Shown here piece by piece: positions 7,993 to 38,291 of a stretch of DNA of 64,000 bases. Positions within the stretch are counted from its first letter, which is position 1. Each line of letters opens with the position of its first letter. The DNA comes from Escherichia phage vB_EcoM_JB75. Position numbers and translations under genes: made by a program. The notes beneath the pieces are model-generated. The model did no database searches. It was not told the DNA's origin and was given only the letters and a program-made list of their open reading frames with translations. Location of the stretch: sequence record MH355584.1; one strand, 5' to 3'.

Positions 7993-8200
7993 TTCAAAAT
8001 CCGATTATTTTAATTCTCTCAATGATAAAGATAAAAATCTAATAAGACATTTTATTGTTGAGATGGGATATACTGACACACGTGATTTAAGAGAACATAT
8101 ATTTGAATGTGGTGTAGCTAAAAAGTTTTCATTCACATGCAAGTGTTTGAGAGAGGTAATTCAGCACTATGAACAATTTAGTCGCAAAACACAATTTTAA
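7976..8200 (+). CDS. hypothetical protein (74 aa)
   Basis: ORF overlapping the upstream stop; cysteine-containing (CGVAKKFSFTCKC). Confidence 0.45.
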   Translation: MAREINSKSDYFNSLNDKDKNLIRHFIVEMGYTDTRDLREHIFECGVAKKFSFTCKCLREVIQHYEQFSRKTQF

Positions 8201-8277
8201 TAAAGCTTCTGTCCATAAGGATAAGAAGAAAGCGTTTAAAGAATCTAATCGCAAACAGAAACATAAGGGGAAGGTCT

Positions 8278-36950: not shown

Positions 36951-37286
36951 ATGTCTGAAGTACAACAGCTACCAATTCGTGCTGTCGGTGAATATGTTAT
37001 TTTAGTTTCTGAACCTGCACAAGCCGGTGATGAAGAAGTTACAGAATCAGGACTTATTATCGGTAAACGTGTTCAAGGTGAAGTTCCTGAACTGTGTGTA
37101 GTTCACTCTGTCGGTCCTGATGTTCCTGAAGGTTTCTGTGAAGTTGGTGATTTGACTTCTCTTCCAGTTGGTCAAATTCGAAATGTTCCGCATCCTTTTG
37201 TAGCTCTGGGTCTTAAGCAGCCAAAAGAAATTAAACAAAAATTCGTTACTTGTCACTATAAAGCTATTCCGTGTCTTTATAAGTGA
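36951..37286 (+). CDS. 31: co-chaperonin gp31 (GroES analogue), 111 aa
   Basis: 111 aa; [44 protein letters not shown] matches recalled T4 gp31; MotA-box middle promoter upstream. Confidence 0.9.
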
Positions 37287-37294
37287 TATAAATA
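37287..37294 (+). promoter_or_regulatory. late promoter upstream of rIII
   Basis: TATAAATA immediately after gene 31. Confidence 0.5.
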
Positions 37295-37433
37295 ATAATA
37301 TGAATTGGGTGTCGGAATAATAAGTTAACCGAACAATTCTATGTGGTAGTCTACAACTGAGAGATCTGTCGAAAGAAGATGAAATTCAGAAGAACGTGAC
37401 TACCGAGTTTTAATCTCTAACGAGAATTTTTAA

Positions 37434-37682
37434 ATGATTAAACAATTACAACACGCTCTTGAACTGCAACGAAACGCATGGAATAATGGTCACGAAAACT
37501 ATGGCGCATCTATTGATGTTGAAGCCGAAGCTCTTGAAATCCTGCGTTATTTCAAACATCTGAATCCTGCTCAAACTGCATTAGCTGCTGAGCTTCAGGA
37601 AAAAGATGAACTTAAATATGCTAAGCCTCTGGCTTCTGCTGCACGAAAAGCAGTTCGTCACTTTGTGGTAACACTGAAGTAA
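37434..37682 (+). CDS. rIII: lysis-inhibition accessory protein rIII (82 aa)
   Basis: 82 aa as in T4 rIII; downstream of gene 31; late promoter TATAAATA upstream. Confidence 0.78.
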   Translation: MIKQLQHALELQRNAWNNGHENYGASIDVEAEALEILRYFKHLNPAQTALAAELQEKDELKYAKPLASAARKAVRHFVVTLK

Positions 37683-38080
37683 TTTATTGGAGAGTCACTG
37701 CCTTAGTGTGAAGTTAAAACGAGGAGCCGTCGAACTGTCTGATTAATGATTTGCGAATCATTATAGTTTTAAGACCCCGGCAGTTTTACGGTGTACCTCT
37801 TGAATGTTATTCTTATAGCGGCAAGTGCATGCTACCCCGAGGTGATGGCCAATCGGGAGTACGCCTCAAGGCCTATATATCCATCAGTATATATCTTATC
37901 CTCGAGAAATCGAACCCGGAACCTTTAAGCTAACGGTGTGCAACAGATAAGAGCTATAAGGTATGATGACGGGTTTATAGTTATCCTGGTCGTTAAATAT
38001 CCAAAAACCTATGTTCCCCTTGAGGGCTTGCGCAGGCAATGCCAATAAGTCCTGCATTTTCATTTAAAAGAGAATTTATA

Positions 38081-38257
38081 ATGGCAAAACAAGCTAAAGC
38101 AAAGAAAGCAGTTGAAAAGAAAGTTGGTGATTCTAAACGCGCTGGCTACAAGCGTGGGTCGAACTCTCGTATCAATCAAACTGTTGAGAAGATCATGCGC
38201 CGAGCACGTGCGGTTCTTCGAGATGATGCTTCTCGTTTTGGTAAGCAGAAAGCATAA
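38081..38257 (+). CDS. small basic protein (58 aa)
   Basis: MAKQAKAKKAVEKKVGDSKRAGYKRGSNSRINQTVEKIMRRARAVLRDDASRFGKQKA; strongly Lys/Arg-rich; followed by a strong terminator. Confidence 0.5.
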   Translation: MAKQAKAKKAVEKKVGDSKRAGYKRGSNSRINQTVEKIMRRARAVLRDDASRFGKQKA

Positions 38258-38262
38258 GTTGA

Positions 38263-38291
38263 GGACTCCTTCGGGAGTCCTTTTTTATTTT
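38263..38291 (+). terminator. rho-independent terminator
   Basis: GGACTCCTTCGGGAGTCC hairpin followed by TTTTTTATTTT. Confidence 0.8.

Follow-up and report, generated by a model that had tools for sequence, protein, structure and literature searches.

ToxIN, a type III system whose antitoxin RNA ToxI consists of tandem repeats of 36–38 nt, is a model for abortive infection and is active against T4. Solitary repeat units in phages reportedly act as RNA-based anti-CRISPRs, a description ascribed to Camara-Wilpert et al. in 2023. The concept of a single phage copy of a host immune small RNA used as a decoy is shared with the element presented here, by analogy only, the immune system and the RNA being different. 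In Pectobacterium phage phiTE, an intergenic pseudo-ToxI suppresses ToxN and defeats abortive infection once it has been expanded (Blower et al., 2012; PMC3475682), while T4-family phages escape ToxIN by other routes (PMC5449768). The present analysis deals with a stretch of 64,000 nt of Escherichia phage vB_EcoM_JB75 (MH355584.1), referred to as the window, and in particular with the 398-bp spacer (37683–38080, the island) which separates rIII, ending at 37682, from gene 30.9, starting at 38081. A single ToxI-like unit and a four-way-junction RNA were identified in this spacer. Literature searches retrieved no description of either in T-even phages; subscription journals may hold one. The kind of element would thus be known, namely a phage antitoxin-RNA mimic, and what appears to be new is its occurrence in T-even phages within an array of cassettes, together with an unclassified RNA family.

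The ToxI-like unit is located at the 5' end of the island and comprises the following features.

37689–37719, plus strand: ToxI-like (pseudo-ToxI) unit GGAGAGUCACUGCCUUAGUGUGAAGUUAAAA, single copy with an A-rich tail
37689–37692 with 37699–37702, plus strand: stem S1 of the unit, from covariation
37695–37698 with 37708–37711, plus strand: stem S2 of the unit, from covariation

Both stems were inferred here from covariation alone and not from the published crystal structure. Positions 37685–37719 of the window match a 38-nt tandem array (GGAGAGTCACTGCCGTTAAGTGTGAAGTTAAAAAAATC, 5.8 copies) on plasmid NZ_CP134748.1 of Pantoea agglomerans, with 88.9% identity over 36 nt. When the unit is aligned with the Pantoea repeat, 31 of 33 aligned positions are identical and two small indels are the only other difference. 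The array lies directly upstream of a ToxN gene, which is recognised as PF13958 at 3e-39 and whose product is 37% identical to ToxN from an E. coli plasmid. Spacers of Klebsiella phages carry another sequence, CGGUGAUUUGCUACCAAAGUGCAGCUAGAAAAUAAA, which is nearly the 36-nt ToxI antitoxin repeat as printed, AGGTGATTTGCTACCTTTAAGTGCAGCTAGAAATTC (PMC8610362). This sequence hits 3–10 tandem sites per record on small mobilizable plasmids of E. coli, Salmonella, Klebsiella and Yersinia, and the arrays so matched are again found directly upstream of ToxN/AbiQ genes. Altogether, at least six sequence types of the unit are present in the rIII–30.9 spacers of 47 IMG/VR phages, the one of T4 itself among them.

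Support for the two stems comes from an alignment in which the unit stands beside genuine ToxI repeats and 11 further phage copies: 92.1% of the cells are paired versus 27–56% after sliding, and three pairs are changed on both sides. The stems GGUG/UACC and UUGC/GCAG of ToxI are replaced by the compensatory variants AGUG/UACU, UCGC/GCGG and UCAC/GUGA. A structure-aware motif of the ToxI unit occurs once in the window, where 0.08 occurrences are expected by chance. The unit thus shares with ToxI a nearly identical repeat (that of Pantoea), two covarying stems and the A-rich 3' tail. Unlike ToxI, it is neither tandem nor located in a bacterium or plasmid, has no toxN gene behind it and has not kept the processing sites of the 5' side. 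No toxN or abiQ gene adjoins the unit in the window, where its flanks are rIII and gene 30.9. Judged by its sequence, it is an orphan single ToxI-type antitoxin unit in a phage, homologous to the repeats that precede toxN.

The case of phiTE (Blower et al., 2012; PMC3475682) is similar in that both elements are intergenic and ToxI-like, have no adjacent toxN and are present in low copy number in the wild type. The phiTE element has 1.5 repeats and a documented expansion and escape phenotype, whereas the T-even unit, known here from sequence, is single and is fixed at one locus after rIII, T4 included. Also unlike phiTE, the T-even units are of several sequence types which track different ToxI families, and they stand among other structured RNAs. 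Antitoxin mimicry by the unit is plausible. No lytic phages have been studied more thoroughly than T4 and its relatives, which are in wide use for phage therapy. Many therapeutic phages of Escherichia, Klebsiella, Yersinia and Enterobacter share with T4 a conserved ToxI-like unit just after rIII, which offers a directly testable hypothesis of RNA-based counter-defence.

A related arrangement was observed in bacteria. On the Vibrio parahaemolyticus megaplasmid NZ_CP097357.1 (L053, 1466–1570), a single ToxI-like unit, GGAGAGUCACUACCAUAAGUGUGAAGUUGAAAAAAAA, stands between a sigma-70-like promoter (TTGACA...TAGAAT) on its 5' side and an intrinsic terminator. It has no neighbouring ToxN gene, and four other Vibrio replicons have the same 36-nt hit. 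The locus looks like an orphan gene for a single-unit antitoxin small RNA in a bacterium.

The central part of the island is occupied by a larger fold, the elements of which are given below.

37812–37960, plus strand: four-way-junction RNA of 149 nt, defined by RNAalifold and pair counts
37812–37819 with 37953–37960, plus strand: P1, closing helix, 5–8 bp among homologues
37820–37822 with 37871–37873, plus strand: P2, carrying an internal loop and the P3 arm
37830–37861, plus strand: P3, variable arm
37874–37879 with 37888–37893, plus strand: P4, plain hairpin
37894–37900 with 37946–37952, plus strand: P5, enclosing P6 and P7
37902–37905 with 37910–37913, plus strand: P6, small hairpin with a GAAA loop here (GAAA, GUAA or UAAA being usual)
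37914–37918 with 37934–37939, plus strand: P7, helix of 5 bp

MAFFT alignments of 20 and 24 distinct copies, combined with RNAalifold, gave one consistent fold in which P1, P2, P4 and P5 meet with zero unpaired bases. In the 24-sequence alignment, which spans about ten T4-like genera, 94.3% of the cells are in standard pairs; when the 3' partners are slid by 1–3 columns, this value is 30–42%. Changes on both sides affect 30 of the 45 pairs, and none of 500 shuffles reached any of five pairing measures. The shuffle control ignores relatedness, while the slid control retains it and is equally clear. With 20 sequences, 97.4% of the cells are paired and 22 of 40 pairs are changed on both sides. 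As examples of double changes, P2 GGC/GCC becomes GGU/ACC and P7 CCCGG/CGG becomes CCCAG/UGG in L082; in GWPR59, P7 becomes CCUGG/CAG and P5 UCUUAUC/GAUAAGA becomes UUCGUG/CACGAA. The alignment contains 78 G·U cells versus 11 A·C cells, which assigns the fold to the plus (sense) strand. The centroid fold of the window copy taken as a single sequence is the same junction (z-score –1.96; –0.87 for the reverse strand).

Homologues of the junction RNA are 139–151 nt long and share no open frame. Searched with a covariance model derived from this alignment, the window yields exactly one copy, with 170.5 bits. Searches of Rfam 15 with a 2-kb and a 176-nt region gave no match at E ≤ 10. A transfer-RNA (tRNA) or transfer-messenger-RNA identity was also considered and rejected, ARAGORN reporting no such gene in the window. 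Beyond T4-like phage contigs, exact-motif scans of bacterial genomes and metagenomes gave nothing but GC-rich chance hits. A relaxed 16-mer scan of viral contigs added 33 loci, of which the covariance model rejected all but one. Taken on comparative grounds, the assignment of a structured RNA matching no catalogued family is well supported, and it provides a defined object for seeking a partner protein or ligand. Two unpaired stretches, AAG.GCA and GCUAAYRGUGUGCAAC, are invariant among the homologues, which suggests tertiary contacts or a binding surface. No antisense targets of these stretches were found within the window.

The topology, with four linkerless helices and conserved internal loops in two arms, is similar to that of the SAM-I and NiCo riboswitches, the hairpin ribozyme and tRNA-like structures. 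Unlike these, the junction RNA has no covariance-model match, expression platform or cleavage motif. A riboswitch aptamer which senses a metabolite and controls gene 30.9 would account for the closing P1 helix, the multi-helix junction, the highly conserved unpaired nucleotides and the position 5' of a gene in most genera. It is nevertheless improbable, because no conserved expression platform exists: P1 is followed by a pseudoknot, a hairpin or a ToxI-like unit, and about 120 nt of other modules separate the junction RNA from the start of 30.9. In addition, the RNA is at the 3' end of an operon in one lineage, the downstream gene differs between lineages, and no Rfam riboswitch is matched. 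An even smaller chance is given to a self-cleaving ribozyme, or a dedicated ribonuclease (RNase) substrate, that would cut the polycistronic message. A perfect four-way junction with internal loops is reminiscent of the natural hairpin ribozyme, but the loops are unlike its loops A and B, no ribozyme model of Rfam 15 is matched and no candidate cleavage site was identified in the junction RNA. The T4 RNAs rnaC and rnaD are likewise non-coding RNAs of the T4 type (119–139 nt, function unknown). They differ from the junction RNA in being located in the tRNA cluster, and side-by-side reading shows no sequence resemblance. The junction RNA is most likely either a trans-acting decoy or a cis-acting messenger RNA (mRNA) element.

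Short strings are shared between the Tequatrovirus junction RNA and ToxI, namely ACCUUUAAG, AAGUGCA, GCUACC and AGGUGAU. The first three, in the 5' part of the junction RNA, follow the order of the ToxI repeat junction. Local alignment of the two RNAs gives p of about 0.03, and the shared strings are not conserved in divergent members of the family. An origin of the junction RNA from a ToxI array is possible but unproven.

The distribution of the elements was analysed across phages. The window is a segment of a Tequatrovirus genome, of which 1,151 bases are 100% identical to Yersinia phage PYps55T, and many Escherichia phages are about 99.8% identical to it. BLAST against 50,697 phage records detected the island region in about 1,000 T4-like phages, with at least 80% coverage in only 179. 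The spacer of T4 is 245 bp long and is cleanly devoid of the central ~150 bp, that is, of the junction RNA. The central element alone recurs in about 410 phage records with 85–100% identity. The genera concerned include Tequatrovirus, Mosigvirus, Moonvirus, Karamvirus, Kanagawavirus, Kagamiyamavirus and Muldoonvirus, together with Klebsiella T4-like phages. Between the window and four of five other genera, the nucleotide identity of the junction RNA is 82–94%, while that of gp31 and rIII is 60–75%; with EcS1 the junction RNA is only 70% identical. It stands between rIII and 30.9 in every Tevenvirinae locus inspected, with diverging flanks. Yersinia phage JC221 and Pseudotevenvirus-like phages have a divergent copy between uvsY and uvsW, downstream of uvsY and convergent with uvsW, and no 30.9 homologue follows.

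The covariance model found the junction RNA downstream of rIII in 18 of 47 IMG/VR rIII loci, and detected none at loci encoding an rIII protein with 100% identity to that of the window. Module order varies too: Klebsiella phages have the pseudoknot, the ToxI-like unit and the junction RNA, and JC221 has the junction RNA followed by the ToxI-like unit. The modules are autonomous sense-strand RNA folds that are selected for base pairing and exchanged like cassettes.

Presence/absence polymorphism and relocation between loci are also what would be expected from the decayed remnant of a homing endonuclease or mobile element, from a small protein gene that had been overlooked, or from a recombination cassette acting purely at the level of DNA. 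T4-type phages are said, with reference to Arbiol et al. in 2010, to shuffle cassettes of promoters and stem-loops, and hypothetical proteins are annotated over the island in some records. The coding evidence points the other way. On the plus strand, the island contains only one open reading frame (ORF) with a TTG start (37751–37933, 60 aa) and a nested one with a GTG start, and on the minus strand a single ORF of 55 aa; a Pfam search with all three gave no match. The central 142 nt have stops in almost every reading frame in each of 20 homologues, and the lengths of these copies differ by non-multiples of 3. The compensatory pairs and the G·U bias of one strand indicate selection on RNA rather than on protein or duplex DNA. 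This group of explanations is largely refuted and retains a very slight probability.

Beside the ToxI-like unit and the junction RNA, the island holds several smaller structures.

37721–37799, plus strand: long imperfect hairpin, in Tequatrovirus and Mosigvirus spacers only
37962–38013, plus strand: H-type pseudoknot, from covariation in 21 homologues
37968–37973 with 37985–37991, plus strand: stem S1 of the pseudoknot, covarying between genera
37979–37982 (loop) with 38006–38009, plus strand: stem S2 of the pseudoknot, weakened by one A·C in the window
38013–38030, plus strand: small conserved hairpin GUUCCCCUUGAGGGCUUG, an invariant block in the four genera aligned
38033–38055, plus strand: hairpin GCAGG...CCUGC, adjoining the 30.9 ribosome-binding region on its 5' side

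The long hairpin has a minimum free energy of –24.5 kcal/mol (z-score –3.33, 1 of 200 shuffles) and shows compensatory changes in L070. The pseudoknot is present in nearly all rIII–30.9 spacers, T4 included. Among the 21 homologues 81.4% of the cells are paired versus 34–48% after sliding, and the covariation score was reached by 0 of 500 shuffles. Covariants include UUGUGAG/CUCACAA (Merlin), CAAGGUU/AAUCUUG (L069) and GUAGU/ACUAC (EcL8g), and the linker CGUUAAAUAUCCAAAAA is conserved and A-rich. This architecture, with its conserved stem 1 and A-rich strand, agrees by description only with that of TenpI, which like CptI is another type III antitoxin and for which an H-type pseudoknot, a conserved stem 1 and an adenosine stretch have been reported (PMC12283969). 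Pairing in the small hairpin is preserved by variants such as CCUC/GAGG. At the site of the hairpin 38033–38055, other genera have a hairpin of 60 nt.

At the exact site of the junction RNA, an alternative cassette of about 45 nt, ACUAUCACGCGUCAGAAAAAGGUUAUCUGUCUAAGUCGUGGUUGGU, is found in other Tequatrovirus and Mosigvirus phages (rIII–30.9 spacers L055, L057, L060–L063, L066, L068 and L070; also L072), and some phages have nothing at the site. Other genera have a related form immediately 5' of the 30.9 ribosome-binding site. Two variants (CAGA/UCUG versus CAGC/GCUG), when compared, suggest that this cassette is structured. An Rfam scan of a Klebsiella-phage spacer gave no match.

The context of transcription was deduced from the genes and signals around the island.

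36951–37286, plus strand: gp31, the first of the ordered plus-strand genes
37287–37294, plus strand: late promoter TATAAATA, directly after the gp31 stop, read from the sequence
147 bp between gp31 and rIII, plus strand: gp31–rIII spacer
37434–37682, plus strand: rIII, directly 5' of the island
38081–38257, plus strand: gene 30.9, encoding a very basic protein of 58 aa (PHROG 1427, unknown function), the downstream gene of the unit
38261–38282, plus strand: intrinsic terminator closing the rIII–30.9 transcription unit
3' of the terminator 38261–38282, in plus-strand order: early-type promoters, then gene 30.8

The sequence TATAAATA is the T4 late-promoter consensus, and a late transcript covering rIII, the island and 30.9 likely starts there. 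Neither a sigma-70-like promoter nor a terminator-like site was found inside the island. From this and from the operon position, the rIII–30.9 message is inferred to run through the island. The protein gp30.9 is very rich in lysine and arginine, and its gene is always directly 3' of a structured spacer in Tevenvirinae. This protein is possibly a nucleic-acid binder and a candidate partner for the RNAs of the leader.

Tentatively, and at slightly less than even chances, the island is read as a transcribed non-coding spacer of exchanged RNA folds which serves as an RNA-only counter-defence region. In such a scheme, the RNAs would be made early and late within the rIII/30.9 message. The ToxI-like unit would bind an endoribonuclease of the ToxN family and keep it inhibited after host transcription has stopped and, with it, the host's own antitoxin supply. 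The junction RNA would likewise work in trans, as a decoy for, or an inhibitor of, some host RNA-binding defence protein, and the pseudoknot possibly too. To ascribe mimicry to the junction RNA, to the pseudoknot or to the alternative cassette is speculation. The stronger proposal, that the junction RNA represents a new class of phage trans-acting RNA which inhibits a bacterial immune or toxin protein and is exchanged among genera beside ToxI-type mimics in an RNA-only counter-defence island, is considered unlikely, although less so than the riboswitch or the ribozyme.

Several observations weigh against a counter-defence function. The 36-nt Pantoea match has a BLAST E-value of 0.1, which is weak alone. 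It was credited because the hit falls exactly on the antitoxin array, because the sequences differ only by the two small indels and because the structure-aware motif is found once in the window against the low chance expectation given above. Each phage locus has 0 or 1 unit, while plasmid arrays have 5–6. In phiTE, the 1.5 repeats of the wild type and a single cloned pseudo-ToxI repeat both failed to neutralise ToxN (PMC3475682). A search of 5,426 complete E. coli genomes found no toxIN of the Pantoea type. When the junction RNA, the whole island, the other modules and the alternative cassette were compared by BLAST with plasmids and E. coli genomes, bacterial counterparts were obtained for the ToxI-like unit alone. 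For the junction RNA, the pseudoknot and the alternative cassette, none was detected there or in an exact-motif scan of 185,579 genomes. These three elements consequently bring no evidence of mimicry. Moreover, the position of the modules inside an mRNA fits cis-acting roles equally well.

A purely cis-acting function is the main competitor, possible but on balance doubtful. The folds would be stable and would protect the rIII/30.9 message from ribonucleases of the host or the phage, direct its processing or set translation of 30.9 or rIII, and would have no role in trans. All modules belong to a single transcription unit, inside which neither a promoter nor a terminator was found, hairpins adjoin the 30.9 ribosome-binding region, and a related 60-nt hairpin is found upstream of rIII in the window and upstream of 30.9 in other genera. 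The small, very basic gp30.9 could bind its own leader. Intercistronic hairpins and processing by RegB, RNase E and RNase G are established for this gene cluster in T4 and speak for the same function. However, the order of the modules and their distance to 30.9 vary freely, and T4 expresses rIII and 30.9 without a junction RNA. In Pseudotevenvirus-like phages, no gene follows the junction RNA on the same strand, and in one lineage the RNA closes an operon. Unpaired stretches that are invariant across genera and reach 16 nt exceed the needs of a nuclease barrier, and the likeness to ToxI would be left unexplained.

The initial annotation, made from the sequence of the window, had described about 400 bp without a convincing ORF after rIII, and the gap of 398 bp with no conserved ORF is confirmed. 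The higher G+C content noted at the same time was also recovered: it is 0.42 in the island against 0.36 in the window (top 7% of 398-bp windows) and 0.467 in the central element, measured over 37812–37963 (top 2.5%). Values of about 0.41–0.44 are also reached in the 3' half of rIII and in 30.9, so that the enrichment is real but modest. Of the two inverted repeats, GCAGG (38033–38037) with CCTGC (38051–38055) is present and forms a hairpin. The two GGCC copies (37847–37850 and 37870–37873) exist as well; the fold supported by covariation places them in two different helices, and they are not partners.

The proposal of a structured non-coding RNA has gained strong support from the covariation seen in the junction RNA, in the pseudoknot and in the ToxI-like unit, the comparison of related T-even spacers having revealed the conserved structure that was looked for. 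What changes is the idea of one RNA: the island is structured, but as several independent modules shuffled between phage genera. The decayed mobile element or homing endonuclease suggested as the other option is contradicted by the lack of an ORF, Pfam match or protein-like conservation and by selection on base pairs, and a missed short known gene is excluded. The suggested Rfam scan gave no match for any module, nor, at the gathering score, anywhere in the whole 64-kb window. Folded as a whole, the island has an ordinary energy on both strands (z-scores –1.29 and –0.51). Thermodynamics of the single sequence would not have decided the question; the support for structure is that of comparative analysis.

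Annotation pipelines now place spurious "hypothetical proteins" over these RNAs. GenBank records such as PP442064.1 (64527–64670, i.e. L003 1578–1721), MZ234027.1 and others contain "hypothetical protein" coding sequences, on either strand, over the junction RNA, and one public record names this region "glycogen branching enzyme". The coding sequences called over the four-way-junction RNA are likely annotation artefacts.

Two other regions of the window, 2369–2733 (365 bp) and 7993–8277 (285 bp), are also devoid of ATG-started ORFs of at least 50 aa on either strand, the former being similar in size to the rIII–30.9 island. Finally, the gp31–rIII spacer contains at 37345–37404 an irregular hairpin of about 60 nt, GGUAGUC-UACAACUGAGAGAUCUGUCGAAAGAAGAUGAAAUUCAGAAGAACGU-GACUACC. 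The same motif is located upstream of 30.9, and not of rIII, in the spacers of Klebsiella phages, Moonvirus and Muldoonvirus. Compensatory changes are seen in its outer part (GGGAGC/GCUCCC) and in its inner part (CCGA/UCGG versus CUGA/UCAG, and AACU/AGUU versus AUCU/AGAU). This hairpin may be a translational operator or another cassette.

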